A stretch of 64,000 bases of DNA from Paecilomyces variotii (lineage: Eukaryota), in assembly GCA_004022145.1 (NCBI GenBank), contig RCNU01000005.1. The stretch is one strand, 5' to 3'. This document shows positions 1-28,497 of the stretch, piece by piece. Under the pieces are notes generated by a model. That model saw only the letters and a list, made by a program, of their open reading frames with translations, had not been told where the DNA came from and made no database searches. The position numbers and the translations under genes are program-made. Every line of letters starts with the position of its first letter. Position 1 is the stretch's first letter.

Positions 1-2500
1 TAATAGAAAAAGACTAATTTTTTAAAAGCCTATTAATAAAGAACTATAAGAGATTAAAATAAGAATAAAAAAGAATAATCTTCTAGAGAAGATTATAGGA
101 AAAAAAGAAAGATATTAAATTAAAAATTTAGATAAAAGCTTATTAATAAATCTAATATTAGATAAAGAAAAGGAAAATATAGAGAAGGAAAAAAAAGGGA
201 AAAAAAAAACTAAGAGTCCTAAAAAACTAAAAAGAGAAAAAAAGCTTAAGATTTAAGATAAAAAAAAATAGCTAAAAAAAGGATATAAATATAAGATTAG
301 TATATCTATATTAATAAAAAAGGCTATTATTAACCTAAAAAATAAAAAAGTATTAAAATTTTTAAAGAAAGAAAAGATTAAACCTATTGCTATACTAAAT
401 TTATATTAAAAAAATATAAAATATAATAAGACTAAGAAGTATAAAAGATAATATCTTTAAAAAAAGATTAAAAATACTTATAGATAGTAATAATAACCTT
501 AAATACTAGAATATTAGCATAAACTACTAGAAATAGTTTTAAGGGAGATAGAGACTTAATATTAACTTTAAGAATTATTACTGCCTAGATAAGGAAGAAA
601 CTAAAATATAGTTCTAACTAAGTAGACTAAATATAAATATTAAGAAGATTAAAGAAGTCTTATAATAGGTTAATTTAGGGAAAATTAAATTAATCTATAA
701 GCTATATATATAACTATTAGCTAATATAATTAATATAAAGGAGGATATATTTATAAAAGAAGCTAAAGGAGTATTAAAAATAATTAAAAATATAAAGCTA
801 GCAGCAGTAAAATAATAGAAGAAGAGATTATTTAAAATAATAATTTATCCTTATAAAAGTTTATTTAAAGAAATTAAATAATTTATAAATAAAATTTCTA
901 AAAGTAAATAGATAATAGAACCTTCTAATAGAGCCTTAAAAATTAATATAAAGCCCTTCTTTTCTATAATAAACTTAAAAAACCCCTTTATTAAAAAAGA
1001 AACTAGATACTTAAAAAATATATAAAATACTAAAACTATATAATTTAAAAATAATTTAAAGGCTAAGCAGATATTAAGTATATCTAGCAACAGCTAGGTT
1101 AAAAAAAGAATAAAAAATCTTATTTTAGAAAATCTTAAAAATATAAAAGATAGAGATAATATAAAAATTAAAAAAACCTTATTTAAAGACCTTCTCCCTA
1201 AGAAATTCCTAATATTAAGGATAATTTAACTGTTTAGAGATCTTAAATTAATTAATATAAATATTTTTAATAATATACCTAGCAGCTTATATTATAAGGC
1301 TTAAGATAATATATATAGGGCTAAAGAATATCTTAAATCTAAGTATAGGGATAAAAAATATTTTAATTTAAATAAAAAAGACTTTACCCTAAATAAAATA
1401 TAAAACTAATATATTTAATTAAGTATTATAATAAAAGAGGATTTTAATTATTAGGAAATAAATAAAGTTTTTTAAATTATACTCTTTAAAAAGAAATTAG
1501 CAGAAAAAATATTATAATATACTATTATAAAAATAAAAGCAGCCCTTTATTATAAAAAGAAGAATAAAAAATTAATAGGGCTTAAAAATTTATTTAAGAA
1601 TATTCTTTAGAAGGTTATTATATAAGATATTTAGATTTATTTAATTTAGTTAATACTATATAGTTATAGTAAATATAGGCTACAGGTTTAATATCTTAGG
1701 GGATATAAGCTAAGAGTATTAAATATAGAGACTATAATCCCTAAGAAAAAAATAGGCTAGAGCTTTATAACTCTAGGGACTAAACTAATTATTAAAGATA
1801 AGTCTAAGAAAATTATAAGCTTAAGAGATATTATATTTAGGCAGGGAGAAGTAACTTTTATTAGTAATCTATATTAGCTAATATTAGAGAATTAAAGAAT
1901 AGATCTTAATAATATTTATTATTTTAATTATAGAGAATAAGATAAGATAAGATTTAATTAAAGAGAATCTAGGCTTTTTAATATTTAAATAAATAGAGTT
2001 ATAGCTATAAATAAAGTAATATTTAATTAATTAAATTAGGATTATTTAAAAGTTAAAATAGAGTTATACTTTATATTAAAGCAAGATATATTATTAGTTT
2101 AAGATTATTTATAGAAGAAAGGAACTCAGCTTTATAAATTAGGGGTTTTAAAATATATATAATATTAAAAACTAGAATATTCCTATTTTAAAAATAATTT
2201 ATAATATTAAAAAGAGGAGATAATATAGACTATAATAATTAAAAAAGATAAATAAGGGTATCTATTCTTAGAGAAGGGGAAGCTATATAATAAAAAGAAT
2301 TAGTATAAAGAATATAATTAGTTAAGAGATTATATATTTTTATTTAAAATCTTTAAAAAGTCTATAAGTAAAGCAGGAGAAAGTAAGAGTAATAAAGAGA
2401 TAATACCTTTTAGTTATTTAAAATAAAATAATTAGCTATTTTTATAATATACTAATAATTATAATATAAGAAGTTTAGAAAGTAATAAGAGTAATAGCAA
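1..2500 (+). mobile_element. RIP-degraded repeat relic, family not identified
   Basis: Very AT-rich, TpA-saturated, CpA/TpG/CpG nearly absent. Purine-rich plus strand suggests a former plus-strand ORF; skew reverses near 2500. No motif confidently recovered; boundaries approximate. Confidence 0.5.
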
Positions 2501-5500
2501 TAATTTATTAATATTAATAATAAATAGGGATTTATAATTCTAAAAAGCTCTTATATTTATTTTATTAAAATATTTCTCAAGATAGTATTTTATAATAGTT
2601 TTTATAGATTCTTAAGGGTAGTATTAGTATTATAATATAATAGCCTAACTATTAATAGAATTTATAATTAAATAGAATTTTATAATAGTTATATTTCTGC
2701 CTAATTCTTTTACCTTTAGTATTATTAAAAAAAAATATAATAAAATAAGGATTAGTAATTAGTTTTAGCCTATGCTATAAATTATAGATACTAGTATTAT
2801 AAGATAATAATAATTTAATAGATTTAATTAATATTACTAGTAATAGCTTAGTTATAATTATTAAATCTATTAGTCTTAAATCTCTAGAATAATTATTATT
2901 CTCTATAACTAGATTTTCTAGCTTCTATATATTTGCTATTTTTTTATTATTATTATCTTATCTACTTATTATTAGTATTCTAATAATAATCTCTAGTAAT
3001 ATATTTACTGCAAATATTAGTAGTATAAATATTAGAAGTTCTTTATTTAGCTTATTAATAGATCTATCTAGAATATTTTAATCTTTTATTAGTATTTAAC
3101 TTTTAGTAATTATTATATTATATATAATATTACTATTTATTTTATTAATTAGTTATAATTATAATATAAGATAATTCTTTTATAGCTATTCTTATATTTA
3201 GTATAAGGTAATTTCTTAATATAATTTCTGCTATTCTGCTAGTATTATTATATTAAGTTTATTATAAGTTAGTAGCAGTAATTCTTCTATATTAATAATA
3301 GCATTTACTTCTAGTAAGGTTATAATAATGCTATATAATTTATATAATTCTATTTATTATTTTAGGGTTAACTAAGATTATAAGACTATATTATTAAGTA
3401 TATATACTAGGATTAATTAGTTTTTATTAATAAGGTATTATAAAATATTGCTATTATAGTTAGCTAAATAATATATTTTAAAGGGATAAGCTATAAGGAT
3501 TTTATATAGTCTAAATTAATATTTTTTAAATTTTTAATATGTTTTATTATAAATAAATACCTATTTATTAAGTTTAAAAGAAGACTTAATAATATTATTA
3601 TAGTAAACTTATAATACTTATATTACCTTTTTTAATAACTTCTTATTAACTATAAGCTAAGTATATTATAATATAGTAATTTATTTTTTATACACCTTAA
3701 TTATATTTATAATCTCTAATAAGTATAGTAGGTTATTATTAAAGAGTAGTATTAAATAGTATTTATATAAGAGATAAAAGAAATTATATCTTATAGTCTA
3801 GTATAATTTAATATATATTATAAAGATTACTTATAGAAGATATTTATCCTATAAATAAATAGGCTTATTAATAAGCATTTTAGTTAGTATATTATCTAAT
3901 AGACTATTATAATTCTTAACCTTATTATTAGTTCTTAGGTAATATAGTATAATATACTAATAATATATACTAATAATCTTTAAGTAATAAATAATTATTT
4001 AGAAAAGGAAGTTAGAGCTATTATTAGATAATAATTCCTATAAAGCTCTATAATTAATAAAAATATAATTATAGATAAACTTTATAATTATTTTATCCTT
4101 TATATTTAGTAATATTTCTATAACTAGCTATTCTATTATATATTTAATTATAGTAATAATTTATTTATTACTGTTTAGTATAGTTAGTAGAATATTAATA
4201 AGGTTAATTGCCTAATAGTTAAATAGTTAAATATTGTAACTAATAAATATTTATAGTATCTCGCGTTTAAGGCCTGGTTATACTTATTATACTACTTAAT
4301 ATTTAAGGCAGTATTATATAAAATATTATATATCCTTTTATATTATTAGCTATTATATATAGAGTTATATTACCTTAAATAGGGCTAGATATCTGAGATA
4401 TCTATAGTCTATATATATTTCTTCTAGGAAATTATTATAAAAAAATAGATAAAGATAGAGAATATTATTATTACTATTATAATATTATAAGAATCCTTTT
4501 ATATTAAATATAAACTTATCCTTTTTTTTATTAATTATAGATTATAAGTATTATAGTAATATTATCTTATTACTAAATATAGTAACTATTATATTATATT
4601 ATTTTATCTTATCTTATTTAATTATAAGGGAGTTAATAGTATATTATATTGCTTCTTTCTCTTCTAATATAAAGTTAAGATATTGTAATATTATATTAGA
4701 GATAATAGCTTAGCTATTTAGGCAATATTTAATATTAAGATTATAATCTTAGAAATCTGCTAACTATTATATTAATTGTTTTAATAGGGTTTTTATTATT
4801 TATATATATTTAAGGCTTTTATAGTTAGTAAAGACTATAATTTTATATCTATTATTAAGATATATATATTAAATTATAAGAGTATATTTAATTACTAGTA
4901 GTTCTTTCTTATATATTAAGTAATTCTTTTTATAAATTATTAATTTGCGATCTTTAAAAATAATTAGATATAGGCCTTTTATAATTATATCTTTTTATAA
5001 TAAGCTATAACTAATTGCTTAATTGCTAGTATTTATTTTAAGAGTAAATAATTTAGAGATATTTAGCAATTAAAGAATAGATTTATTAATAATACTCTTT
5101 TTTAATTATTTAAATATATATTAATATTTAGCTGTCTATTTAATTTTATAATACTTTTATTTATATAATTATATATTACCTTCTTTTAAAAGGTCTAATA
5201 AGGGTATAGTAATATTAGTAAAGTTCTTAATATAATATTAATAATACTATACTAATCTTAAAAACTAATAAATCTTATAGATATTAATAAATATTAGCTA
5301 TTTCTTAATAATCTTTATCTTTAACTATATTAGCTAAATTATCCCTCCGCCTATATTATATCTATAAAATTCTAATTATAGCTTTATAAAAATATATTTA
5401 AATAGCTTTATAAATAATTAATTATTAGATAAAACTTATAAAACTATAGATAAGTAATAAATATACTCCTCTAATATTAGAGAGAAAACTATAATATTAT

Positions 5501-8500
5501 TAAGATAAATAATTATAAATTTATTAAGATATAGATATAAAATCTTATTTATTAAGGCTTAAAAAATAGCTAAAGCATTAGCTAATCTAAATAGTATTAT
5601 AATAAATTTAAATTTTTCTTAATATATATTAAATACTATCTTCAGAATATCTTCTTCTTTAATCTAGATTTAATAGTAGCTTTATATAAGGTCTAGTTTA
5701 TTAAGAATTTCTGTATTATAGAGTTAATTAAAATATTTTTAGATTTTTAGCAGTAAATATTTATTATATTTAATAACTGTATTAAAGGCTTAATAATTAA
5801 TATATATTCTCTATCTTCTACCTGGTTTCTTTATAAATAGGGCTAGGAAATTCTAAGGGCTTACTAATTTATAGACAATTCCTTTAATATAAAGGTTATT
5901 AATTTATTACACTTTCTTATCCTTATATAAAGGTAATAATAAGTATATATTAATATTAATTAGTCGGGCATCTTATATATTAATTTTATAATTATTACTT
6001 AGCTATAATAGTAAAATTATATTAAGTAGCTTTTCTTAGAAATAATATTTAAATTATTATAATATAATTATAATTTCTAATAATATATTCTTCTATTTTA
6101 TTATAGATAAAGTATTTATTATATTATTAAGTTATTATATAGTATAAAGTTGCAATTTAATATCTTTTTTAAAAAAGTATTTAGCTTTATTATAAGAGAT
6201 AAGGGTATTATTAATATCTTTAACTAAATCGCAAATTATTATATATTATAAGATAGAGCTTAAGTAATATATTAAACTATTATAATTATTAATTATAATT
6301 TATATTATTTTTTAATTAATCTTTAAGTTTATAGACTAAAGCTATATTATACCTAAAATAATATTAAAATTATTAAGGTTAACTACTTATATAAATAGTT
6401 CTATATAATATATATCTAACTATAAGAGTATTATTGCAGTACTATAAATAGTTATAGCTAAATTATTTATAAATTATATTTTTAATTACTTAATTATATT
6501 AATAGAAATATTAGCTATCTTATAAAATTTAACTGAGGTATATATTATATTAGCGCCTAAGTTAATTAAATAATATATAGGATATTAGGTTTTAAATAAA
6601 AACTTACCCCTTATAATCTTTATAATCTTTCTTAAGAATAAGTAGAGATATTTATCTAAACAGCTTTATTATTTATTAATTTTATAGGCTTTAATTGCTA
6701 TAATATATTATCTAAGATCTTCTATATAGAATTAATCTTATTTAAATAGTTATAAGATAGCTATAATATATTAGCAGTTTTTATCTAATATATTAAAGGA
6801 AATGCAATAATAAGGCAGTATTAAATTAAAAAATCTAGTCCTGCTATTAGAGTAACTATAGGATTAATATTAACTATTCCTTAAGCTATTATAATTATAA
6901 TAATATAAGTTTAAAAAATAAGATATTAACTTTACTATATAAGATAATTATTATCTTAATTAATAATTTTAACTAGAGGAATATTCTCTTTTATTATAAT
7001 TATAAGTTTAGTATTCTATATAATTATATTAGAAATAAAGGTAATTCTTCTAATAATAGTTAGTTTATTCTAGGGTATTTTTTTATAAAGTATTCCCTAG
7101 TAATATTATTTTAAAGGAGTAAGATAAGTGCTATAACTATATTTATTATTATAAGTAATCTAGTATTAGCTTAACTATTAATAACTCTTATTTATTGCTT
7201 ATTATATATAATTATTAAGATTATTATTCTAAGTATTAGTAGGTATTATATATATATATAGCTATATATTGCTAATTAAATTAGTTAGCTATTATAATAT
7301 AGTTTATATAATTAAGATTATTATAATTTAGATTTTCTTCTATATAATTATAAATATAGATTTTTAATCCTTAAATAAAGTATTTCTTAAGTTTATAATC
7401 TAATAAAAAAGAGTTAAATTATTATTATAATATAAGCAATTTAATAATATATTCTATAATAAAATATATTTATATTAATTAATAATATTTATTACAGTTA
7501 TATACTTTTTAATTAATATTTTTATATAATACTAAGATTTACTATAACTAATTATTTAAGATATTAAACTTTATAGCCCTTCCTATCTTAATATTATTAG
7601 ATTAAGTTTTTTATATTAATCTTATATTACCTTTAAGAAATCTAGTATAATATTATATAATCTCTTATTAATTCTTAAACTAGTCTTTAGTATTATATTA
7701 TTAAATATAATTATAAATTTTAAACTTCTAGACTTCTAGAAGTTCTATATTATATTTACCCTTATATAAGAAAGAGGTTTTAGGTTTAAGTCTAGGTCTG
7801 TTATTAAGGCCTATTGCTTATATTACCTATGCTTAAGCAATATTAATAATATTATTAGCAACTTAGGCTAAGAGACTTAATAAGCTAAAGTCTAGTTATA
7901 ATAAGTTTAGTATTATAATATTTGCAGCTTATTCTAGAGCTAGAGGAGATTATCTTAAATTAGGTGTTTTAATACCTAATATTAATTAGTTATTTTTATT
8001 TAAATCTATATAGCTAATATAATTAGCTAAGTCTTCTGCTATAGTTATTATAATTATTTTAAGGTCTTAATTATTAAAATAATTACTAAATATCTATATT
8101 AATTCTTCTTATAATAAGAGTATATTTATATCTTATTATTTACCCTTTATAGCTAATATATTATTATAAATTAGACTTTAATATAATTCTTTATCTTTAC
8201 CCCTTTTTTTAAATATAGCAGTAAGGTTAAGTTTAAAAATATTCTATATTTATTTAATTTAGTATAAATAAGAAGTTATAAGATAAAGTTTAAGTTTATT
8301 ATTATTTAGATTTAGGTTTCCTTAATATTATATATATTATTATATTATTATTATTATAGCTAACTGCTATATTATTAAATAGGTAATATCTTTTATACTT
8401 AATATTATATTTTAGGCTTCTTTATATATAGTAATATAATAATTATTATAATTATTAATATTATAATATAATAGCATTAGCCTATATAGGCTATAGCCCT
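2500..8500 (-). mobile_element. RIP-inactivated Ty3/Gypsy LTR retrotransposon relic
   Basis: Minus-strand motifs in Gypsy order, differing from consensus mainly by G>A/C>T. Protease INLGA (=IDSGA, ~6552-6566). RT ILFRLANALAIF (=MPFGLANAPATF, ~5562-5600) and IYLNNIIVFS (=YLDD, ~5496-5507). RNase H KELLVIKYTL (~4880-4910) and VFTNYKSL (=VFTDHKSL, ~4812-4835). Integrase YYPRTNNKVKN (=YHPRTNGKVE, ~3915-3945). LTRs not resolved; ends approximate. Confidence 0.9.
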
Positions 8501-8614
8501 CTAGGCCTATGTAATCCCCTTATTATTGCCTAATCTAAATATTTAGATATGCTACTAGATATTGTTTAGAAGAAGAAAGTTAATTACTAAGAGATATCTA
8601 TACCTAAGGCTATA

Positions 8615-9051
8615 ACATAATTCTCTACTAACTAGATTACCCGCCTAAGCGGATTAATACTATATAATATATAGAATAACCTCTTTTTAAACTGAGATTT
8701 CTCAACAACTATATATCTAGCATATATAATACTTAATATATAGCTTTCTATAATAGTAAACTTTTATATACTAAAATTTTAAGCTCTAAAAATTACTTAT
8801 TATTTAGGTAATATAAATTATTATTATAATTTTTATAATTATATTTTACCTAAGATATCTAAAGAATAGCAAGACTTAAGCAGATAAAATTAGACATATA
8901 TAATCTTAACAATATATATTTTACATATATCCGTTCTAATAACCTTTAGATACTTAGTTATTAAGATATTTTAGTTTAAAAAAGGGCTATTTTGTATATA
9001 ATACGGCACTAATCCGCTTAGGCGGGTAATCCGGTCGGCAGGGAATTACGT
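8615..9051. mobile_element. Fot1/Pogo-type (Tc1-mariner) MITE, 437 bp
   Basis: ~50-bp TIRs. Right TIR read inward is ACGTAATTCCCTGCCGACCGGATTACCCGCCTAAGCGGATTAGTGCCGTAT; the left TIR is the same with only transitions. ACGT terminus and TA on both flanks (8613-8614, 9052-9053); no ORF inside. Confidence 0.85.
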
Positions 9052-10290
9052 TATAGTAGAGAATGACTAAGCTAGATGACATAAGAAAAGACCACACATA
9101 CGCCGTTGAGGCTTATTTAGTTTACTAAGCACAATGACAGTCAGCAGAGAAAGCAGGCAGTACTGCTCGTTAACCAGCAAACCATTGTTTATTACAAATT
9201 TCCGATGAAAATTTCCTCGTAAAGGTTACTTAGGTTTAGGCGTTATATATGAAGAGAATTATGTGTAGCACCGTCCAACAACGGGTGTGGATAATTACAC
9301 GATCGAGATATATCTCCTCGCACCTAATTCTTTGAGACTTCCATCCTTTGTTTTCTATGCCTTCAATATTATCACTATACAAGTCATATATGTAACAGGT
9401 GAAGAAATAACAATTATTGGAGGCGTCTTGCCCTCTCCCAGTTCATAGGATTGGACATGTCGGGCCTCAATTTGAAGAGCCTAAGAAGCTTGTCCCGTTC
9501 GTTTATAAGCCACAAAAGTCACATAAAATGCCAAATCCAAAAGAGGAGTCATATGAGAATCTATCTATATTCTACCCGCAATTATACCAGCAAGCAATAT
9601 AACACACAATTTAACTAAATCGAAACGAATACATCCAGAGTACACATACCACCTCGGCGAGAGCAGAGAGGTATGAAAGTCAGATTCATGATCATATAGT
9701 AGCCAGTGCAGCATCTTCGGATATGGGGAGCGCGAGATTGGCTCAAGGAGGAATACCAGTACAGTACAGTAGCTAGGTGTAGTTGGCAGCTTGTGAGCAT
9801 AGCGAAGTCCGTGTTGTTGCGAGCGGGGTCTTTCTAGCTTAATTCAAAAAGCTCATTTGGCACTCAGCTACCACTATGATCCCCTTATAATGAGAATATA
9901 GCACGGAAATGTTCAGCATCAATGTTAAAAGTCACAATGTGCGCTTTCTACTGGCTCTTAGTTGAGGTTCTGTAAGTTTTGTATCAGGAGGCGATGGAAA
10001 GATTGACTAGCTTGTGGCCAAGGGATTGGTCGTTAGTGCGATATCGAGACCTGCAACAGTCTGTACTGTCTCTAGTTTCTCTGAATGCACGGAAACAGAA
10101 TTAGTGATGATCATAGTTACGACCCATCTCAACCAAGTACGCGACAAGTATCGAGGTTTGTGAATTATATCGACATATGATAACAAAATATCCGTACAGG
10201 ACAGAGTTAGCTTAAACATGCCTTTCAAATGTTATATGACCGGTCTATATACAACATGAAGTTTACATTTGGAAGGAAATTCTATTATCC

Positions 10291-10643
10291 TCTTTTTTGC
10301 GACTTGATGCATTCTGTTGAAGCTGCAGTAAGGCATGGTAATCGCATATCCAAAATAACATCGCGGTTTCCCAAAAAGGAAATCACAACATTACACTTCC
10401 ACAAGGAAACAAAAAGCTCACACCTCCACAAGGACACAAAAAGCTCACATCCCCGGCCTCCCGAGTGCACTCGGGAGGAGGAGGATGCTACGAAAATCCC
10501 ACCTTGCTTGCGGCGGGCAGGATTTTTTCACCCCTGGAGGCGCCCTCCAGGGTTCGAACCGGGAGAGCAGGCAGTGCTGGTGCCTAGAGCAGGACCTCAA
10601 CGAGGTCCTGACTCTAACCACTGCACTACCTGACCCCCCGCGT
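10291..10643 (-). mobile_element. Probable tRNA-derived SINE
   Basis: Minus strand: A-box TAGTGCAGTGG (10628-10618), B-box GGTTCGAACCC (10560-10550), tRNA-like stems and a short A6 tail. TATTATCC direct repeats at 10283-10290 and 10644-10651 are a candidate TSD. Confidence 0.55.
10399..10452. repeat. 27-bp tandem duplication (2 copies)
   Basis: CCACAAGGAAACAAAAAGCTCACACCT followed by CCACAAGGACACAAAAAGCTCACATCC. Confidence 0.9.
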
Positions 10644-11758
10644 TATTATCCCAACCTTTGCGGAGTATATATGGTCCATGTTATAGAGGCCGCCGCCTAC
10701 AGCTGAGTCACATGTCTACGTCAATGCGGGTTCAAAGAATTGATTTCGTCGTATCACATGTGTACTCATGATAGGCCCGGTTGGTTGTGCTATGCTATAC
10801 ACTCAGGCTCTCTACCTTGTACAGCGTAGGTTCAGTCTGGGTCTTGTTGAGCCGGTTTAATCTCGAAAATAATATAATAAACTCTTCTTTTTGTGCCCTA
10901 TACACATTACAGTTCAAGATATGGTAGTGTTCTAGCTTCGATCGTGACTACGAACGACGTTCTATTCGAAAACATATAATAGATGTTGACTTTGGCATTG
11001 GAGCCTAGAGGGGGTATGCACCCACCAAATAAATAGGTCATATCAATAGGTTTCTTCACTTCACTGGAGGGAAGTCAGAAACGAGAGCAAGTCCTACCGT
11101 ATTCCTCGGCATTCTCAGGCTCGGTGGCTCTCCATATATAGTAATTCCATGTTCTGTCTCTCACAATCCTATGCTATCCAAACTTACTATGCTGGTGGCT
11201 CTTGCAGCTTTTCCTTCGAGGGCTCCTCCTGAACTCAAATGGCAGGTACAATAACATCATAAAAGAAGCAAACCTCACCATCACCCTACTCACAGACTCT
11301 GGTATAGAGACATATCGCCGGATAATCTATGAGCTACTCGATATGCAATGATAGTATAGCTATACTCCAGGAAATTCATTCCGTGATTTGCGCTAAGGCC
11401 GAAATCTGGGTTGAGGATCTAACTCACACCTTGGCTATAACGAGCTGCGTTCACTTTTCGGACGCGTCGGCAAGAATAATACTTTCTAACGTCATAATAA
11501 GCTTGGAAAGACAGCATTTCCGTGGTATTTATTCCTCTCGAACTTACAAGTGCAGCACAGACCGCATGGCCTCGAAGGTCCTTTTCAAATAATAGCTTGC
11601 GACGATGCACCCTGATTTCTTCACAACAGGAGAGCTGCATACACGACCGACATGAGTCAATTGGAGCTTGATTTGCTACGCGCAGAGCGTCTCGCTCACC
11701 GCTCACACTGGACTTTCGGTTCGTATACAATATGACTGTCTAAGATGCTGATATTGCA

Positions 11759-12217
11759 ATGAGTGAAGCTAATACGTTCTTCACAGGACGCACACCAGAT
11801 ACATGCGTCTTCTGTTTCGAGAGGCTGGAGGCAGATTCTCCATATCGTCAACTTCCCTGCGAGCACTGCTTCCATCTGCCATGCATCGATAACTGGATAG
11901 GTCGACATCATGCGAATTGTCCACTGTGCCGGGAATCGTTCTACTACTTTAGACGACCACGAATTGTCACCATCACACGACCACAGCCGGCTCCTTCGCA
12001 GTCTACGGACTGGCCTGGTGAAAAGCAGAACAAGCTCACAGGAGGTCTTGAAGATAGCCGACCCATCCAGGCTGTTTTCAGTGGTCTCAAGACTTGGTGC
12101 AAAAAGAAGATACAAGATCGTGCGAGCGGTGGTATACTCAGCCCTGCGCGTAGAACGCCACAAAAGTTGTTGATGAGGGTGAATCCGACAGAGGGTATTC
12201 CGGAAATAACGCACTAA
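11759..12217 (+). CDS. RING-H2 zinc finger protein (upstream exons unresolved)
   Basis: CVFC...LPCEHCFHLPCIDNW...CPLCR fits the C3H2C3 RING-H2 pattern. The true start may lie upstream (~11170). Confidence 0.75.
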   Translation: MSEANTFFTGRTPDTCVFCFERLEADSPYRQLPCEHCFHLPCIDNWIGRHHANCPLCRESFYYFRRPRIVTITRPQPAPSQSTDWPGEKQNKLTGGLEDSRPIQAVFSGLKTWCKKKIQDRASGGILSPARRTPQKLLMRVNPTEGIPEITH

Positions 12218-12592
12218 GTGGTGCATGCTTATATCTAGGATATCAATTATATCAGAAATTGGTGGACCTCTCTATTTCTTTATCTACACCTTATCAAATG
12301 TTCTACGGTGTGAGACTTGGTAGCAGCATAAGCGAGAAGAGATGACTCTAGAATTCAGGTAAAGGTAAATTCCGCGGAAGTGTCTTCATAAACTTCGTGC
12401 AGTGACGTATATGGTAGTTCTGTGCATACCTCGCGGCTTTTTATTCCGTCTGATAAAGTCTCCCAGCCATGCAAGTCAAATTTCTTCATGGATGCAGAAA
12501 CTTAACCATAGATATTCCAAATGAGGCGTCTTATCGGTAGTTCACTCTCAAAAAACAGAGAAAATGGGAAGCCCAATAACAGTCGACCTGAC

Positions 12593-14131
12593 ATGTCAAG
12601 CAAATTCCCTAGCACGATCACCAATGTTCGCGCAGCACAGAGACTTGACTCTAGAGGGAAACCAACGGTACAAGTATGGGTAACAACAAACAAGGGTAGT
12701 ATTCCAATGCAGGAAGAATATACATGTGTTACTGTGCTGATGGTACTACATAGGTACTTTCACCGCGTCAGCACCTTCAGGTGCGTCGAGAGGACCATAT
12801 GAAGCGCATGAGATTCTCGATGCAGATCCAAACATGTACGGAGGCAATGGTGTTGAGAAAGCGGTGTACCACGCTCAGCATGTCATCGGACCTGGGCTTG
12901 TGGATAAATGCTTCGATGTGAGCAGGGACCTAGCCAAGATAGACGACTTCATGATCAAGCTTGATGGGACAAAAGACAAGGGAAATCTAGGCACCAATGC
13001 CATCTTGCCTCTTAGCATGGCATGTGCACGAGCCGCAGCTGCAGCGAGAGTAAGTCTGTCACAAACTGAATAATCTATCAGTGCTGACGTTCGCGGTTAC
13101 AGGATGTGCCACTTTACGAATTCTTAAGGCAGGAAGCACATGCACCAGAGGGCTATGTCCTGCCTGTCCCGTTCTTCAATCTTTTGAATGGAGGCGTACA
13201 CTCGGGAAACCAAATGGCATTCCAGGAATTCATGATAGCACCGGTGGGCGCGGAGTCAATGGCACAAGCCATTCAGATCGGGAGTGAGGTGTACCAGGAG
13301 TTAAAGAGTATGATCAAAAAGAAGTATGGAGCAGCCGGTGAGTACCTAGTTGATTCACGTTTTCACCAACAAGAGCTAACATTTTCACGTAGCAACTGCT
13401 GTTGGCGAAGAGGGAGGCTTTTCGCCCCCAATATCCGATCCAGAAGAGGCACTAGATCTCTTAACAGAAGCAGTGAAATCCAGTGGTCATCAAGGGAAAA
13501 TCAAATTCGGCATCGACCCTGCATCATCCCAGTTCTTTGAATGCGGCTGCTACGATATCGGTTACAAACGAGGAAACGAGGAGAAACTATCTTCAACGCA
13601 GCTTACCGATCTATATAATAAACTCTTACAGAAATACCCGATAATCCTCCTAGAAGACCCCTTTGCAGAAGACGACTGGGCTTCTTGGAGGAACTTCAAC
13701 AGAGATTGCAAAATCGAACTTGTCGGCGACGATCTTCTCGCCACTAACATCTCTAGGCTTGCAATGGCACGAGAACATGCCGCTTGCAATTCCATTTTGC
13801 TAAAGGTTAACCAAATTGGCACTGTCAGCGAGGCTCTTTCTGTGTAAGGGTTACAATTCCAAATACCCAGTCTCCGCCTCCATTAACAATGTGTTGCAGT
13901 GCACAAAGCGCTTATAGCTTCGGGTGGAAAGTATTCGTCTCCCATAGATCAGGCGAGACCAACGATGACTTCATTTCCGATCTGGCTGTAGCTATTGGCT
14001 GCGGACATTTGAAGGCAGGGAGTCCTTGCAGAGGTGAAAGAGTGGCCAAGTACAATCGGTTGATGGACATTGAAGACCAATTAAAATGTACACATGCGAA
14101 CTTTAAGTATGCTGGGAATATGTGGGAATAG
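12593..14131 (+). CDS. eno: Enolase, divergent paralogue (multi-exon)
   Basis: [52 protein letters not shown] and RGERVAKYN are present. Four GT-AG introns seen; stop TAG 14129-14131. Confidence 0.93.
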
Positions 14132-14411
14132 TCCTTGACACTATTTGCTAGAATGTTATGGGGGTAGAAATACAATTTCTAAGAGTAAAGTAAAAGATGA
14201 TAATCGACTTCTCAGGAAAGAAATCCTAACTGGCCACCGGGATTCAAGATCCGAAGTACTTACTCGCTACGTCATCTTGAGCATACAATATTTTCCCCAA
14301 GCATTCAATATGTAGATGCATTGTATGTGCAGCGCTGTATACCCACCATTGAAACGCCGTGAAATCGATCTCTAAACACCCCCTTACTGAAGATTATCCA
14401 TCCCAAGCAAA

Positions 14412-15613
14412 ATGTCCACCACAGACCGTTACATTATCCGCAAGACCGGGCAGCCCTTCACATCCGGATATCGAGTCTACATCGAAAAAGACAATGAAAT
14501 AATTTCCCCATGGCACGACATCCCACTGTACAATGATGAACAGAAGGGAATATTGAACATGATCGTTGAGATCCCACGCTGGAGTAATGCCAAGATGGAG
14601 GTGAGAATAAGCCATCAAAATCATATATATAAGCTCTTCAGCTACAGAGAATTTATTTTAGTTCTGCGCAGATATCCAAAGACGAATTCCTTTCGCCCAT
14701 TAAGCAGGATATCAAGAAAGGCCGACCACGCTATGTGCCAAATATCTTCCCGCATAAGGGATATCCCTGGAACTATGGGGCTTTTCCGCAGGTAGTTTCA
14801 TACACAGATCACTACAGCTCCAATAATATTATGATATCTGATAACTCTATACTCACAGACATGGGAAGATCCCTCCATCGAAGATCCCCACACCCACGCT
14901 AACGGCGATAACGACCCACTCGACGTATGCGAACTGGGCGGCTATGTTGGCGAAACCGGTGAAGTGAAACCAGTCAAGGTCCTCGGTGCATTTGCTATCC
15001 TCGACGAAGGAGAGACAGACTGGAAGGTCCTCGTGGTAGATGTGCGTGATGCATTAGCTGCGAAAGTGAATGATATCGGAGACGTCGAGGCGTACATGCC
15101 TGGTTTTCTGGAGATGATGAAGTGGTGGTTTAGGATGTATAAGGTGCCGGATGGGAAGAAGGAAAATGAACTTGCATCGGAGGGCAACATATTTGGCAGA
15201 GAGTATGTTTCACACTGATCGTCTCTGGTTTCATACTTTATCACTCGAAAGAACTTAATGTCAACAATACCAGTTTCGCCATGGAGCTCATCAAAGACTG
15301 CCACAAAAGCTGGAAGGCCATGATGAATGAAGAGAGGCCGGAACATACATCATCGTCTCTGTACGTGAAGCGTGCCTCGCGTTGACTTTTGCTAGGGCAA
15401 GCACAAAACTAACTTCTTTCTAGAAGCGACCTTGGTATACGCGGTAGCGAGATTCTCGGCGAGACATATAACGAAAAGGGAGCGGACCCTGATAAGACGG
15501 CGATTGATAAGTCTTATTTCTTTCCAGCCAGCCTTACGCGTGTACCCGACGGAAGAGGTACTACGAGTATTGTTGAAATTCCCGCGCCGGCACCGATGCC
15601 GGTACAAACATAG
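14412..15613 (+). CDS. ipp1: Family I inorganic pyrophosphatase (Ipp1-like, multi-exon)
   Basis: [61 protein letters not shown] and a C-terminal AIDKSYFF. Final exon boundaries less certain. Confidence 0.9.
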
Positions 15614-16022
15614 AGTAGATGGCGTATAATGTTCTCCCTATAGGATAAGCTCAAGCTACATGCATGCTATGGAGATACAATTTCCAAATATAATGGTTTC
15701 TTTGTGTAGCACCTATCGAGGGCATCGTGTTATATCTTCAATGCGGACGGAAAACTAGGTAGGCTGGCAGACTGAAAAGTACCATGTTCTTAAAGTAGTG
15801 GTATCCCTATTCCATGACGTCTACAGCTGAAACTATTATGCAAAGGAGTACCACGCAAAACATGTTTAATTCTTGATAATAACTATAACTCCACTCACAC
15901 CATCTAAACTATTTCTGAGAGATAATAGAGCTCTTTCAATTGCATCGAACCTGCCTCGATCCCTGCAGTCTGTAGATTTAAACTTGTACTGCGTTCCAGG
16001 AATCTCAGCTCGGCCAATTGAT

Positions 16023-16491
16023 TTATCTCCTCGGACCTCTTCCCAGCGTAATAGCCGGCTCATTCAAATTGTCATGCTCATATCTACCAAGCAAGAAATC
16101 AGGATCAGCACCAACCACATAAGCACGCAACAACTATTCCAGTATTCCCGAAACAGCGAATGTAGAGTATCAACTTACCCTAGAACAGCCACACCCGCAG
16201 TCTCGATCAACATACGCATACCATTCTTGAGCGGCTGTTCAGCCCAACGCAGCGCTAACGCCGCAAGGATATGACCATGAGCCACGCAGACGATATTTTT
16301 GGGCTTCTGGCTCGGTGGCGTATTTGCTGCCGTGGGTCTGGTGTTGCGCTCAATCTCGATTCTCATCTCGTGAACGAGGTGGTCGAGTCGGTCAGAGACT
16401 TGTTCGGGGGATCTGTTGGGTTCTTTAGTTGGTTTATCTTATCCGTACACAATAGAGGGATTATCTCTTGTTATATCTCTCTCCCTTGCCA

Positions 16492-16530
<39 letters not shown>

Positions 16531-17069
16531 TTACTCACTCTCCACCTTCACATCCATCACGCCAGATATTCCATCTCTTACCATTATCCAGGTGCCTCTC
16601 CTTGCGTAATTCATGCACTTCGTCAATGGTCAGACCTTCGTAATCACCGTAATCCCACTCCTGCAACCAGGGAGTGATTTCAACGATGGTGGAATTGCTC
16701 GATGGAGCAGAGGACGTCGACACGCTGAAACCATCCCGTTCCTTAAAGTGGTGGTGACTATGGAGACCAAGATGGAGGAGCTCAGCGGTTCGCCGCGCGC
16801 GGCCCTTGGGAGAGCAGTAGCTGGATTGCGGATACACTTGTCAGTGAAAGGATCGAATGAGAGACAAATGTGCCATTGGATATGGAATAATACATTCTGC
16901 CAATATCTTGTGGATTGATCAACTTCCCTTCGCCTACAAAGGCTGCGCGCGCTTCTTCGACCTGCTTCTCGCCCTCGTGGGACAAGGGGATATCAGAGCT
17001 GCCTGTATGTTTGCCCCCCTTCGACCACTCCGTCTCACCATGGCGGATGAGGAAAACACGGGCCGTCAT
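16023..17069 (-). CDS. Histidine phosphatase / PGM family, SHB17 (sedoheptulose-1,7-bisphosphatase)-like
   Basis: IRHGETEWS-G-HTG-SDIPL, EWDYGDYEGL, WNIWRDGCEGGESP, VAHGHIL and a last exon YEHDNLNEPA; three introns. Confidence 0.88.
16493..16528. repeat. A36 homopolymer (poly-U in an intron of the minus-strand gene)
   Basis: Seen directly. Similar tracts at ~37465-37488, ~55933-55950 (T) and ~60218-60247. Confidence 0.95.
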
Positions 17070-17871
17070 GATCGCTCTGTCGCCGCTTTCTATTGAAGAG
17101 ACGAATATAAGAAGTGGTATGTTTTCTGACACAGGAGGGGGAATATCTAGAGAAAAACGGTCCTATACACTACAACCTCACGCGGCGATTGGGTTATTAC
17201 AGCTTACACCAAAACGCGTCGATTGGTGTCGGACATTACTCATTGCCCGCTTTTCCGGTTGGTACCTCCAAGCAGCCTTCGTATGAACCAACTATGAGAC
17301 TGGCTACCGGCAACTGTAGGAGTGATAGAGGGAAATATGACACTAATCTGATGTATTGCAGGCATATCGCAGAAACGCATCCTGAACTTCACGTCGAATC
17401 CACGTCAATCCCGAACGGCCCGTATTTTCCGAAGTCGACGGCGGGACATGCTTCAATTGACGACAGATTAGGCGCATACCCTAGAGTAGCCATACAGTGC
17501 ATTTTCATTTTCCGTGATCAATAGTTTTCTTATTGCCGTTGATCTCGCGACGACGGATATTACTGCTCCAATAATCTATACATAGTATGAACACAACGCC
17601 CGCTGGGGCTCAAGAAGATATGCAGAGAAATGCCAAAAGGACCAGTTGTCCAATTGCGCTCTCAAAAGACCGTCCAGCTGTTTCCGCTGAGACATTTTCA
17701 ATTCGTACCCGTCAGAACGCCGAGGATCATGCACCGTATCATGTGAGAATCATAAACAAAGAATAGAAAAAAAGAAAATCCAGCATCCGAGACATCCTGT
17801 ATCGTACGTGTAGGAACCAGTCATTCTGCGTAACCCATTCAAACGTTCAGTCATCAAGTTGGTAAGATCGC

Positions 17872-19381
17872 TCAAAAGAGAGCCAAAGCGCCTCCAAGGA
17901 ATGCGCAGAAGGCACCAAGACCAGCCGTCATCCGAAGGTTGCTGTTAGCTCCACCCGTGGAAGGGGCAACAGGGGCAGACGAGGTCGACGATGCAGAAAG
18001 ATGAGCCGCAAGACTGGTAGATGTCACTAAAGTGCTGTGGCGCCTGGTGCTGGTTGTCGCCAACGTGGCTGGTCTAGTAGTGCGGCCAGAAGGGGAAGGC
18101 GAGGCCGATGAAGAAGGAGACGGCAACGAAGAAGGCGGGGATGTGGACTAATACAGAAAGAAAAATCAGCATTGATGAATAAATCAGAAATAGGAAATAC
18201 GGGGTGTGCTCACTCACAGGGGCCGCACTCGGCGGTATGGCGTGCCCAGAGCTGTTGATTGTCCAGCCGCTGGGGAGTCCGGGATAAGAGGACGCAGTTT
18301 CCGTAGACATTGTAGTCGGTCCAGGCACCCAGGGATAAATACTTGGAGTGCTAAAACTGGACGTCTCCTTGTGTGTGCCACTCCATGGGAGGGGACCAGA
18401 TTCAGCCGTCGAGGTCACCGGCGGAGCAGAAGATGCCTCTTTGGGAGCAGCGCCAATGTTACCATTGATCTTGCCGCCATCGGATATGATTGACTCCCAT
18501 GAGCCACTCTTATCTCCATATGTATATGATGTACCCGTCGAGTAATCGGTCACGGAGAGCGATTTCATATACATGGTGTAGGGGCCAGCGCCGTAATCGG
18601 TCGTGCCTCCAGCCCATGCTGGGAGTTGTCAGGTCCAAAGTATCTCTCAACAGGGGACTGTAAATTTACTTACCAATCGTGCCCGCAGCGTTGGAGGGAT
18701 CACCACCAGCCCACACTCCCACCTTGACCATCATTGGACTTTCGGGATATTGGTTGGCAGCCGCAGTTGAAGGTGTAAGCACACGGACGGTGTTACCATC
18801 AATTTGCCAAACGATCTGCTCACTCGTCCAGTCGACAGTATAGGTGTGGAAGCCGTCGTGGTTTCCTGGGTCCGAATGGAAGGCACCACGATTGTAGGTG
18901 CTAGTATCTCCCTTCCCGAAATAGTTCGTCTGCACCTGAGTGTCATCGCCGCCAAGCCATTCCCAGTCAATCTCGTCCAAGTCGTCAGACTGGAGGACGG
19001 CGCTGCTGACGATACCCGTTCCGGGAGCAGCCTTGATTTGGAATTCGACACGACCAAACATGATGTACCACTTGGACTGGATCAGAGGAGCATCACCTTG
19101 CTTGGCAACAGTGAATCCTACTCCATTGCTGTCGTACGTGGGAGTTCCAGTAGCGGTAAAATCTGACGAAGGGCCTTGAGTGAAGTCAAATGTCTTCGAC
19201 GTCCCAAGTGCGGGGTCCGCTGGACATGCTGCTTGAAGTCAGCAGTGGTGCTTGAAAGTAAGAAGTCAATGAGACAATACATACTCTTCTGTAGAGGGTC
19301 GCAATCCGTGTATGTCTGAGCAGCCACGAACGACGTGGAGGACAGCACGAAAGCTGCGATACTCGCTGTGGAGAACCTCAT
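17872..19381 (-). CDS. crh: GH16 Crh-family chitin-glucan transglycosylase, GPI-anchored
   Basis: Signal peptide then AQTYTDCDPL; catalytic DLDEIDWEWLG; QTNYFGKG; GVWAGGD; Ser/Thr-rich stalk; hydrophobic C-terminus. Confidence 0.92.
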
Positions 19382-22300: not shown

Positions 22301-22780
22301 TACTGAGCTGTATAGTAACTATCCATATTATATTCTGGCGGAAAGTACCGCCATCAACGGACCTTGTTGTATTCCAACTGCACGGTGCTAATTTGCAATC
22401 CTTGGCGTGTTCACACCATCGAAATCGATGCTGCGCATCGCCATAGATGGTCTGCGCTCCGGATAGCGAGAGCCAGGTCAATTCTAGCCATTCGATCACC
22501 AATGAAAGGACGTGTTCTTATCGATTTCGATTTATGCCTGGCTTTTCCTCGTTTAATGTTGACAGGTTCTTCTGGTCTCGCGTCATTTCCCCGACGGTGA
22601 CATTATGTAGATAGCTTGGCGGTGAGGCAACATCCAAATACAATATTCCCCTTTAAGAAGAGATACCCGAAGGATCTATTTAAATGAGATGGTGTCGTTT
22701 ATAAATATCTCATTGTATCCCTGCGCTTGACAGGACATGCTTCTTCGACAATTGTCTATGCTGAAGTACTAAGTAGAACA

Positions 22781-25128: not shown

Positions 25129-25604
25129 AGTCACTCGTATCCTTGACTGGGAAGGGGGTAGAATGGTATCCGGACCGTTGGGACCATGAGGCGTGCCTTC
25201 CACGAAACTGGTCCAGATGGATGGAAAGGACTGCTTCACATGGTACAAATGATGACAGGAAGGTCATGTTTCAGCATTGCTCCAGTACTTTGCTGAATTT
25301 GTTCTTGGTGATTCTCTAAATGAGTCTGGTAGGTCTAGCGACACCGGATATTCACTCCATGTATGGAATTGCGATTTACTTCTGATGGTCATTCTCACAG
25401 CGCCCTGTATTGTTGTATAGGCCGGAATAATCCCGACGGCGGATATGTTTACCAATCATGTCACTGAAATAAATAGTAAATATGGTGGTCGAACAATCAA
25501 ATATAGTCTGGTGTAGTACACGAACTAAAAGATTGAGTACCGGTTAATTTCCATATCAAATAGTCCAAATCGGACCAACTCCGGCTTTAAACGGAGCCAG
25601 CTGG

Positions 25605-25612
25605 TTGGTGGA
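25605..25612 (-). promoter_or_regulatory. Candidate GaaR element (GARE core CCNCCAA)
   Basis: TCCACCAA on the minus strand ~430 bp upstream of the L-galactonate dehydratase; short motif that could be chance. Confidence 0.3.
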
Positions 25613-26041
25613 ACGGCAAGTAGTCCGACCGAAGGTAATTTATCCACCAGTCGGCGTTGAGCGCGGGGTTGTTGAAATGCCCCGCGACGAAGAACACCAT
25701 ATCACTATGCCGTCGGGTGATGGAAGAAGGGGGTTATATAACGGGTCTAACGAGGAGGAGAACTTTTCCAAAGCTCATATATAGGCTGCTGTTTACCCGG
25801 GGAGAATGCTGTTTCTACTTTCCCATTATTATTGCATGATTTGGTGTTCCGGTGACGTATTTAGTCGCGAGCTTGTCTCCGTTATTTATTAATCGCGTCC
25901 GATCTGCTGCTCCATTGTCAGACGGCTTCTGTGACGAGAAACAGGATCAATTGGGCGATTTGAGTCTGAGTGCAGCTGTCCTCACGGGAGAGGTTGAATT
26001 AGAGAGGTCACAATTGCAAAATTCGGCCAAAACAAGACACG

Positions 26042-27611: not shown

Positions 27612-28497
27612 TGGGACAGGACTTGATTGTAATTATTTTTTATACCCGTGCGAATAGACATGACTATTAGAGAAGATCCTTGCACTGCGATATCGTCATA
27701 ATAACGAACATATATGTTCATCATCAAGGTTTGATTTGTTCCCAGGAATTTCTTATATCTACTTTGAGCACATCTTTCCAACGCGCAGCATTAAGCATAA
27801 TATAATAATAACTTAAAAGTCCCATAATCAACTAAGGTTGATGACTGGGGGCAGACGGACAAAGATAGAATCGGCAAGCAAGAACCGTAATCGTTGGTAG
27901 GATGATCACAGGCCACGGGGCACATTATCCCGTATGCAAATAAGAAGAAGATTGAAAACTCGACGTAGGACCGTTTTAGGCAAAAGGGGGGTTGGATCTA
28001 TTTCGATGTTCTCTATAGCTCGATATGGAATTATGTAGAGGGCATTCTGGGAGGCAGTCAGTGAATCAAGGATTGCATCCGCTCCCCTTTTTAGCACAAA
28101 CATTCCTGGGTCTGGACTCTTGATGTTCTACGGCAGTCAGTGTTTTGATAACCTTTTTAAGGTATTCGGTCCCGCCGGGATCGCAGCCGGTCAAGTGATC
28201 GGTTCCTGGGCTTAATGCACGTTAAAATTGGCCACTGGGATTTCTATGAGTATCCAAACATCATCGGCATCGGATTCAAACGGTTGTTTGCCGGTGTAAT
28301 CGATATGATATGGCGTGGTGAACTACATGTCAAGCTGGTCGCGATGGCTATTTAGAAGAGCAGATGCCTGGAAGTTCGAGGGTTGTCAACAGAACCTCCA
28401 AAACACACTTCAATCGTCAGGATTAGGGCTTAACAGACTCTATCTTCTTTTCTTCTCTTACTAGGAGGACGTACCTTCGGCCACTGGTCTATTCATA

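Follow-up and report, generated by a model that had tools for sequence, protein, structure and literature searches.

Three adjacent genes of Paecilomyces variotii, encoding an enolase (ENO), a family I inorganic pyrophosphatase (PPA) and a histidine phosphatase of the PGM family, are intact, spliced and expressed on separate transcripts, and the trio appears to be an inherited block of accessory isozymes. The genes lie in the window analysed here, the whole stretch of 64,000 nucleotides from contig RCNU01000005.1. Sequence comparison gives an about even chance that they form a back-up isozyme module with a joint function. Whenever inhibition or shortage of the housekeeping enzymes set in, such a block would supply spare or alternative enolase and pyrophosphate-hydrolysing activity, perhaps together with sugar-bisphosphate hydrolysis, and protection would come from target dosage or back-up and not from export. 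As trigger, fluoride would be the leading candidate: it is to our knowledge the one agent that hits both enolase and pyrophosphatase, and bacteria combine additional eno and ppa copies with a PGM-family gene to the same end; fluoride specifically as the trigger is, on our analysis, possible if somewhat unlikely.

The gene models were assembled by hand from GT..AG introns, and their features are listed in Table 1. The order is RING-ENO-PPA-PGM, with ENO and PPA on the plus strand and the PGM-family gene on the minus strand. A spacing of 280 bp separates ENO from PPA, and the stop codons of the convergent PPA and PGM-family genes are 409 bp apart; the initial annotation had pointed out this tight packing of three genes at 12593..17069, and its coordinates and both gap sizes were reproduced. 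It had also placed the genes next to a RIP island. The left end of the window (1-9000) is AT-rich, with a GC content of 0.16-0.17, and does carry RIP-like dinucleotide values (TpA/ApT about 1.3, (CpA+TpG)/(ApC+GpT) 0.19-0.30); a RING-finger gene, whose function is probably unrelated to the trio, separates this island from ENO. For the three genes the same two indices are normal (0.74 and 1.25, respectively). The earlier remark that no FEX/CrcB exporter is visible in the window agrees with our Pfam searches, in which no CrcB/FEX-family domain was detected among 138 ORFs of at least 90 aa at 9-64 kb and 126 ORFs of 45-89 aa at 9-12.6 and 17-26.4 kb; this result counts against a fluoride-resistance cluster of the bacterial type.

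Table 1. Features around the three-gene block; positions are those of the window.
Feature	Position	Strand	Exons	Basis and remarks
AT-rich island with RIP-like dinucleotide bias	1..9000	.		GC 0.15-0.19; left edge of gene-bearing region
RING-H2 finger ORF, immediately 5' of ENO	11744..12214	+		Pfam zf-RING_2
ENO, paralog-clade (type-2) enolase, 5 exons, 438 aa	12593..14131	+	12593-12695, 12754-13049, 13103-13337, 13393-13843, 13900-14131	hand model, Pfam, RNA joints, tree
PPA, fast-evolving paralog-clade family I (IPP1-like) inorganic pyrophosphatase, 5 exons, 309 aa	14412..15613	+	14412-14600, 14672-14791, 14859-15202, 15274-15360, 15424-15613	hand model, PF00719, RNA joints, tree
SHB17/YKR043C-like histidine phosphatase (branch 1), 4 exons, 250 aa	16023..17069	-	17069-16894, 16820-16539, 16412-16179, 16083-16023	hand model, Pfam His_Phos_1, RNA joints
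GH16 (Crh-like) exon, first recognisable gene rightward of trio	18669..19238	-		Pfam Glyco_hydro_16, E 1.4e-46

Pfam matches to Enolase_N and Enolase_C extend over the full length of ENO and were obtained for all five exon ORFs; the matching protein P0001 carries PF03952 and PF00113. The model is equal in length to the annotated P. variotii protein (98.9% identity), and the motifs NGGVHSG, GEEGG and DPASS, which had been noted at the outset, are all found in its translation. Twelve positions were checked that we take to be the catalytic and metal-ligand residues in yeast numbering (S39, H159, E168, E211, D246, E295, D320, K345, H373, R374, S375 and K396), and all of them are kept in the alignment, both in ENO and in the full-length paralog rows. 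In the tree ENO falls within a paralog clade of 40 rows (support 100), apart from NGGSHAG-type enolases, and does not group with canonical housekeeping enolases of the NGGSHAG/DVAASEF type. Its identity to NGGSHAG-type representatives is 47-52%, and exon 4 scored 162 bits with yeast ENO1 and 144.6 bits with 7rhv, versus 193-225 bits with paralogs from outside Paecilomyces. As judged from these comparisons, ENO belongs, with a full catalytic set, to an old 'second enolase' clade that extends across the Pezizomycotina.

Since NGG-x-H-x-G and D-x-A-x-S are highly variable across enolase representatives, the motif differences of ENO are clade markers and, as sequence features, give no evidence for altered fluoride binding. 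GEEGG is confined to P. variotii, the sister lineages having GDDGG, in which the catalytic Glu211 is replaced by Asp. The enolases of P. lecythidis and of P. variotii No. 5 have this Asp, which may mean that catalysis is changed or reduced in these lineages and counts against a back-up role. A 917-aa 'enolase' model of P. expansum was set aside, its 547 extra residues having no Pfam match and resembling none of the trio proteins.

PPA has the features of a family I enzyme, namely PF00719 (Pyrophosphatase) and the D-x-D-P-x-D signature, and its model equals the annotated P. variotii protein in length, with 98.1% identity. Its exons align end to end with the yeast pyrophosphatase chains, where D115, D117, D120, D147, D152, K154, Y192, K193, E48, K56 and E58 were located; 14 of the 14 active-site residues of the yeast enzyme are retained. 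Together with the 12 of 12 in ENO, this bears out the earlier description of intact catalytic residues. Unlike S. cerevisiae IPP1, PPA belongs to a separate, long-branched Eurotiales clade (Paecilomyces, Thermoascus, Rasamsonia and Penicillium psychrofluorescens; support 100/99), which the tree splits from 24 canonical fungal IPP1 rows, that of Aspergillus nanangensis among them, and its C-terminal tail is longer (309 aa in total versus 287-304 aa in four canonical rows). The identity to canonical fungal pyrophosphatases is 53-61%. Two Paecilomyces species share only 73% of PPA residues, whereas canonical pyrophosphatases of Aspergillus and Yarrowia share 78%, and PPA is therefore fast-evolving. 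These data identify PPA, at the level of sequence, as a catalytically complete, fast-evolving IPP1-type paralog. In the trees both ENO and PPA are thus members of paralog clades, which supports their proposed divergence from the canonical types and makes them putative additional copies.

The third gene had been described as a PGM-family phosphatase. A His_Phos_1 domain, the nucleophile motif RHG and, far from it, HGH place it in the histidine phosphatase superfamily, but the best solved-structure matches of exons 1 and 2 are to S. cerevisiae YKR043C and not to a glycolytic dPGM. Exon 1 matched YKR043C at E 3e-09 and dPGM at 1e-06 or worse. For exon 2, the YKR043C chains (E 1.6e-14) were accompanied by a single further PDB match (2a6p, E 1.7e-05, titled 'possible phosphoglycerate mutase Gpm2') and by no glycolytic dPGM. 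YKR043C is SHB17, the sedoheptulose-1,7-bisphosphatase, and relatives of our protein are labelled sedoheptulose 1,7-bisphosphatase in their source annotations; a protein-atlas look-up returned generic His_Phos_1 clusters only. By these matches the gene is SHB17-like and not of the glycolytic gpmA type. It differs from YKR043C/SHB17 by a low-complexity insert in exon 2, and its substrate is putative. The model is equal in length and 100% identical to the annotated P. variotii protein.

RNA contigs from three organism-labelled runs of three studies (X3, X5 and X10) cover all three genes. Exact RNA joints were seen for 10 of the 11 introns (ENO 4/4, PPA 4/4, PGM-family gene 2/3); pieces of the contigs point to the eleventh, the remaining intron of the PGM-family gene, for which the joint row was lost at the A-run (intron 2 of this gene contains an A36 run at 16493-16528). 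The ENO contig spans 12439-14196 and the separate PPA transcript starts at about 14391, while poly(A) loose ends lie at about 15693 for PPA and 15849 for the PGM-family gene. Two fused enolase-pyrophosphatase gene models (P0002 and P0446) were accordingly regarded as annotation read-throughs. A 10-letter loose end 5' of PPA in run X3 was considered as a spliced leader; it maps to the opposite strand within PPA and was read as an assembly artefact. The depths of the RNA contigs are unsuited to ranking expression, and runs X21-X24 held next to no words of the locus, which is no evidence for silence. The presence of the trio in X3, apparently an ordinary culture, indicates that the genes are not strictly silent without fluoride and counts against a fluoride trigger. 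All three genes are under purifying selection, because 36 of the 40 SNPs listed (of 47) are coding and, of these, 30 are synonymous and 6 nonsynonymous. The upstream regions of the three P. variotii genes have no word of 7, 8 or 9 letters in common, and STRE, HSE and CCAAT elements showed no upstream pattern in common with a Thermoascus-like contig.

Conservation of the linkage, for which a synteny search had been proposed, was found in both Paecilomyces and Thermoascus. The trio has consecutive locus tags or accession numbers in six P. variotii and two P. lecythidis assemblies. In T. thermophilus, T. crustaceus and P. variotii No. 5, ENO lies next to PPA or is merged with it into one gene model, and in T. 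aurantiacus ENO and the PGM-family gene are three accession numbers apart. On the Thermoascus-like contig (L007) the order is RING-ENO-PPA-...-PGM, with a RING ORF at 9167-9586 directly upstream of ENO; PPA and PGM are about 7 kb apart there, with a STAND-NTPase-like ORF in the interval, and this separation counts against a joint function. From this gene order, a RING-ENO-PPA-PGM block is common to the two genera, and the ENO-PPA pair is still adjacent at 59-75% protein identity. Within P. variotii, the enolase cluster was found on 25 contigs, so the locus behaves as a core locus; cargo of a mobile element, e.g. of the Starship type, would be unlikely on the same grounds. In all four longer (at least 8 kb) fungal metagenome loci from outside the Thermoascaceae that carry the paralog enolase (L026, L034, L035 and L043), no PPase- or PGM-like neighbour was present. 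The enolase paralog is, by these sequence data, ancient and mostly unlinked to a pyrophosphatase outside this family. Rasamsonia and P. psychrofluorescens carry the pyrophosphatase paralog, and the enolase paralog was not found for them among the best 120 enolase matches, a weak negative result.

The closest known counterpart is the operon of Enterobacter cloacae FRM, given in the initial annotation as eno, a pyrophosphatase and gpmA with crcB; the published account lists ppaC, uspA, eno, gpmA and crcB and confirms this. According to this account, fluoride induces eno and ppaC about 100-fold, a strain without eno-uspA-ppaC no longer grows at 1,000 mg/L fluoride, and the authors proposed 'additional copies of enzymes'. 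A review names eno and ppa as frequent members of fluoride-riboswitch regulons and attributes fungal fluoride tolerance to the FEX exporter; in yeast, overexpression of IPP1 alone was reported to raise fluoride tolerance. The bacterial operon (ppaC-uspA-eno-gpmA-crcB-orf5249) and these regulons resemble the trio in linking enolase, pyrophosphatase and a gene of the histidine phosphatase superfamily, the first two being extra copies in bacteria and putative extra copies here. However, the operon is described as a single riboswitch-controlled unit that also encodes a CrcB exporter and a universal stress protein; its pyrophosphatase is of family II (Mn-dependent) and its phosphatase of the gpmA type, whereas the trio has three eukaryotic transcripts, a family I pyrophosphatase, an SHB17-like phosphatase and no linked exporter or known regulator. 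Within the literature found, target duplication is documented in bacteria only, and our searches returned nothing on a fungal cluster of this kind or its fluoride response. It is rather unlikely, on our analysis, that the Thermoascaceae block is what the bacterial fluoride-resistance operon would correspond to in a eukaryote. In that reading, heritable spare and possibly less fluoride-sensitive versions of enolase and of family I pyrophosphatase, joined by a histidine phosphatase, would have been convergently assembled from fungal paralogs and would confer FEX-independent tolerance at the level of the targets.

A different role is suggested by Neurospora crassa eno-1 (NCU01870). Like ENO, it is a second predicted enolase of a filamentous ascomycete, and published work describes it as non-essential and low in vegetative expression. 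There it is reported to be weakly expressed whatever the carbon source and induced by light, with a viable, female-sterile knockout; this developmental phenotype and the absence of a linked pyrophosphatase from that description set it apart from ENO. Since a Sordaria row places Sordariales members inside the enolase paralog clade of our tree, we infer that NCU01870 belongs to the same clade and is orthologous to ENO.

It is quite possible, and nearly as likely as the back-up module, that the adjacency was inherited without a joint function. In this case the accessory enolase, old as it is, the accessory pyrophosphatase of Eurotiales and an ordinary SHB17 orthologue would have been chance neighbours since the Thermoascaceae ancestor, each with its own role, e.g. 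as a developmental or condition-specific isozyme; the phenotype of N. crassa eno-1 points to a developmental role. The conserved order, RING gene included, may come from the short distance between Paecilomyces and Thermoascus alone, because the unrelated RING gene on the flank is syntenic too. The two paralog families also differ in age and taxon range, the paralog enolase lacks the pyrophosphatase link in the four longer loci outside the Thermoascaceae, the insertion between PPA and PGM is tolerated in Thermoascus, and the promoters are without a common motif. However, rare accessory copies of both classic fluoride targets are improbable within 280 bp of each other by chance, the pair has stayed together despite its divergence, and it is adjoined by a third enzyme acting on phosphate esters, from the superfamily to which bacterial gpmA belongs.

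A module for phosphate or sugar-phosphate homeostasis, induced when phosphate is scarce or when sugar phosphates cause stress, is improbable. By family assignment, pyrophosphatase and SHB17-type enzymes release Pi, but enolase does not release phosphate, and the Pfam scans of the ORFs at 9-64 kb and on the flanks revealed no phosphate transporter or secreted phosphatase near the trio. The Pho4/NUC-1-type site CACGTG is absent from 9-26 kb, while elsewhere in the window it has 8 matches versus 5.6 expected. A review does tie phosphate homeostasis and phosphatases to fluoride responses. Still less probable, and indeed very improbable, is self-resistance or a decoy against a natural-product inhibitor of enolase or pyrophosphatase within a biosynthetic gene cluster. 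Duplicated housekeeping targets are a familiar pattern in fungal biosynthetic clusters, but no core biosynthetic domain (PKS, NRPS, terpene synthase/cyclase, DMATS or PEP mutase) was found in the ORFs scanned with Pfam (at least 90 aa at 9-64 kb; 45-89 aa at 9-12.6 and 17-26.4 kb). The literature searches gave no link between enolase and fungal self-resistance, and the locus is core-like across the 25 P. variotii contigs.

If enzyme back-up is indeed how the block protects, this strategy would have its first example in a eukaryote, and the block would be a case of convergent clustering of the same enzyme families in bacteria and fungi. Its enolase and pyrophosphatase variants might then become relevant for engineering fungi that tolerate fluoride in organofluorine work. 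Fluoride aside, two uncharacterised fungal isozyme families are delimited here, a 'second enolase' found throughout the Pezizomycotina and a pyrophosphatase of Eurotiales that evolves rapidly. P. variotii can be cultured, and spliced RNA contigs of the locus exist in organism-labelled runs.

The genes for enolase (ENO), family I pyrophosphatase (PPA) and a PGM-family phosphatase were modelled by hand from GT..AG introns. Matching proteins at 99% identity place the window in P. variotii or a very close relative. The models agree in length with annotated P. variotii proteins (98.9%, 98.1% and 100% identity, respectively), and the expected Pfam domains were found on exon ORFs of all three genes. 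They lie beside an AT-rich island of 9 kb (GC 0.15-0.19) with RIP-like dinucleotide bias, beyond which the sequence is ordinary (42-54% GC). The arrangement described in the initial annotation is confirmed. A Pfam search of ORFs in the window revealed no CrcB/FEX domain, in line with the exporter's absence noted before, no secondary-metabolite core enzyme and no transcription factor adjoining the trio. No 7-9-mer is common to all three upstream regions, and CACGTG is absent within 9-26 kb of the window.

Features in the window and in L007, a Thermoascus-like metagenome locus
Sequence	Feature	Coordinates	Strand	Remarks
Window	RING gene (Pfam)	11744-12214		precedes ENO
Window	ENO, enolase	12593-14131	+	5 exons, 438 aa
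Window	PPA, family I pyrophosphatase	14412-15613	+	5 exons, 309 aa
Window	PGM-family, histidine-phosphatase (branch 1)	17069-16023	-	4 exons, 250 aa
Window	Mandelate racemase/muconate-lactonizing-type enzyme	26345-27608		possible catabolic/tailoring cluster
Window	Rieske ring-hydroxylating oxygenase alpha subunit	28465-29611		possible catabolic/tailoring cluster
Window	Class I/II aminotransferase	31744-32205		possible catabolic/tailoring cluster
Window	EXPERA protein	32884-33417		possible catabolic/tailoring cluster
Window	TauD-type dioxygenase	34418-35321	-	possible catabolic/tailoring cluster
L007	RING	9167-9586
L007	ENO	10001-11619
L007	PPA	12562-13377
L007	Phosphatase	21462-20388	-

Judged by its relationships, ENO is an old "second enolase" and not a recent duplicate. 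In a 59-row tree it falls within a Pezizomycotina clade of 40 rows (SH-aLRT 100, stem 0.5), apart from representatives of the NGGSHAG type; inside the clade, Paecilomyces and Thermoascus group together (100), with a Talaromyces/Aspergillus group (95) as their sister. ENO shares 75% identity with Thermoascus, 60-65% with other clade members and 47-52% with NGGSHAG-type representatives. The top 120 matches to exon 4 are all of the NGG-x-HSG type and mostly of the DPASS type, not NGGSHAG/DVAASEF. Clade members outside Paecilomyces reach 193-225 bits with this exon; of the solved structures, yeast ENO1 reaches 162 bits and chain 7rhv, probably the Aspergillus fumigatus enolase, 144.6 bits. The view of a divergent copy with intact motifs is borne out by the tree and by the alignment, in which all 12 residues for catalysis and metal binding are conserved. 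However, enolase representatives of all sources differ widely at the x positions of NGG-x-H-x-G and D-x-A-x-S, and these variants are clade markers that are uninformative on fluoride binding. GEEGG is a peculiarity of P. variotii, and P. lecythidis and P. variotii No. 5 (protein records P0002, P0003, P0449) carry GDDGG, which places Asp at the position of the catalytic Glu211. This split shows that the Paecilomyces enolase is changing at a normally invariant site. The same three records show an altered loop 1 (SSGVS), and in P. lecythidis VGDN stands in place of VGDD after the Mg ligand.

The pyrophosphatase had likewise been described as divergent with its catalytic motifs intact, and both points hold. 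Alignment of exons 1 and 3 to yeast PPase chains locates 11 of 14 active-site residues, and all 14 are kept in the multiple alignment. In a 31-row tree, PPA forms a group (100/99) with its counterparts in P. lecythidis, P. variotii No. 5, Thermoascus thermophilus, Rasamsonia emersonii and Penicillium psychrofluorescens, separated by a long branch from 24 canonical fungal PPases, Aspergillus nanangensis among them; placements within the clade are rough, given three long rows and a bootstrap that had yet to settle completely. PPA differs by 27% between two Paecilomyces species, the canonical PPase by 22% between Aspergillus and Yarrowia, and the PPA clade is fast-evolving by this sequence comparison. 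PPA lacks an N-terminal presequence, and its start resembles cytosolic IPP1. The third gene, either the ordinary orthologue or an additional copy, is classed by homology as SHB17-like, not as the glycolytic gpmA type. The closest solved relatives of its exons 1 and 2 are chains of yeast YKR043C, known as SHB17, a sedoheptulose-1,7-bisphosphatase, and relatives in Monascus and Didymella were given the latter name by their sources. The word-based search returned only 21 relatives, and atlas look-up matches were generic. A 153-aa fragment, DTO166G4_8909, has a distant locus tag, which fits either assembly order or a second copy.

Transcription is seen for all three genes; the claim is limited to this alone, since contig depth cannot rank expression. 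RNA contigs from 4 of 24 listed runs were examined, and spliced contigs in X3, X5 and X10 between them contain exact intron joints for ENO (4/4), PPA (4/4) and the phosphatase (2/3). The remaining intron is implied by contig pieces that stop at 16412 and restart at 16539; an A36 run within this intron 2 (16493-16528, T on the coding strand) was skipped as a repeat in read mapping. The whole spliced ENO mRNA (12439-14196) is covered without mismatch by one 1,536-base X3 contig. In X5, poly(A) loose ends at 15693 for PPA and at 15849 for the phosphatase show where the two transcripts end. Contig extents and poly(A) ends therefore indicate separate ENO and PPA transcripts. The trio is transcribed in a run that looks like ordinary culture. 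Among 40 strain differences listed (7 more were not displayed), 36 are coding, 30 of them synonymous and 6 nonsynonymous, which places all three genes under purifying selection.

Linkage was read from locus tags and accession numbers of annotated assemblies. The trio is consecutive in six P. variotii assemblies (DTO271G3 1185-1187, DTO271D3 4542-4544, DTO169E5, DTO021C3 and those with KAJ9222104-06 and KAJ9257775-77) and likewise in the two assemblies of P. lecythidis. In T. thermophilus, ENO has PPA as its neighbour (3304/3303), and in T. aurantiacus it lies three accession numbers from the phosphatase on a single contig. In T. crustaceus and P. variotii No. 5 the gene models fuse ENO and PPA; given the separate transcripts, we regard these as annotation read-throughs. 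Metagenomes were scanned with an alignment of 15 sequences from the enolase paralog clade, which returned 80 loci; the PPase is also encoded in just two of these, L005 and L007, and L007 alone extends to the phosphatase. L005 and L007 are apparently one sequence, 89% identical to the T. aurantiacus enolase over the best segment. In L007, about 7 kb separate PPA and the phosphatase, and a STAND/AAA NTPase-like (NLR-like) ORF lies in this interval (16445-17338), where P. variotii has nothing. Both partners are absent from four other fungal loci with paralog-type enolase (L026, L034, L035, L043; at least 8 kb each). The block, common to Paecilomyces and Thermoascus, therefore looks like a feature of Thermoascaceae.

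The genes themselves were thus correctly recognized, whereas their interpretation as a fluoride-tolerance module is supported in part only. The initial annotation is right about the operon of Enterobacter cloacae FRM. There, ppaC-uspA-eno-gpmA-crcB-orf5249 is controlled by a fluoride riboswitch, fluoride raises eno and ppaC more than 100-fold, and without eno-uspA-ppaC growth is zero at 1,000 mg/L fluoride. Its authors propose "additional copies of enzymes" as mechanism and consider fluoride inhibition of the mutase unproven. A 2024 review notes that riboswitch regulons often include genes for enolase and pyrophosphatase, and it puts inhibitory constants near 100 µM; in yeast, overexpression of IPP1 alone is reported to increase fluoride tolerance. 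By these precedents, an extra family I PPase and enolase could plausibly protect a fungus by dosage. However, the P. variotii trio has an SHB17-like phosphatase and no linked exporter, whereas the bacterial operon has gpmA and crcB. In the literature searched, supplements excluded, we found neither such a fungal cluster nor fungal fluoride data on it. Fluoride is the most specific and testable candidate trigger, at odds overall well below even.

We favour, at about even chances, a reading in which the trio would serve as a back-up isozyme module. Close behind, and put forward tentatively, is adjacency inherited without joint function, where the second enolase might be a developmental isozyme. 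N. crassa eno-1/NCU01870, presumably a member of the ENO clade, points to such a role. In addition, an unrelated RING gene precedes ENO both in L007 and in the window, which weakens conserved order as evidence for joint function. Phosphate stress and self-resistance are minor readings beside the back-up module.

ENO has two candidate start codons, 12593 and, within the leader (contig start 12439), an in-frame upstream ATG at 12521, the latter giving the 462-aa form annotated in P0417 and P0419. The leader also contains a short uORF, out of frame, which runs from about 12469 past the upstream ATG to a TAG near 12540 and is a candidate for control of ENO. In X3, a + strand GT..AG joint skips 17005-17150, within and upstream of phosphatase exon 1, and a loose end at 17258 continues in letters located further right in the window. 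The pattern would fit a spliced transcript, antisense or neighbouring, that overlaps the start of the phosphatase gene, or else two transcripts joined in one contig. Right of a GH16 gene, about 6.5 kb (window 19500-26300) hold ORFs of at most 201 aa with zero Pfam matches, followed by a possible small catabolic or tailoring cluster (26345-35321). The share of sampled words present in food-fermentation metatranscriptomes from three coded studies (X1, X2, X4-X8, X13, X14) ranges from one third to four fifths, which shows that such fermentations harbour this fungus or a close strain differing by about 1%.
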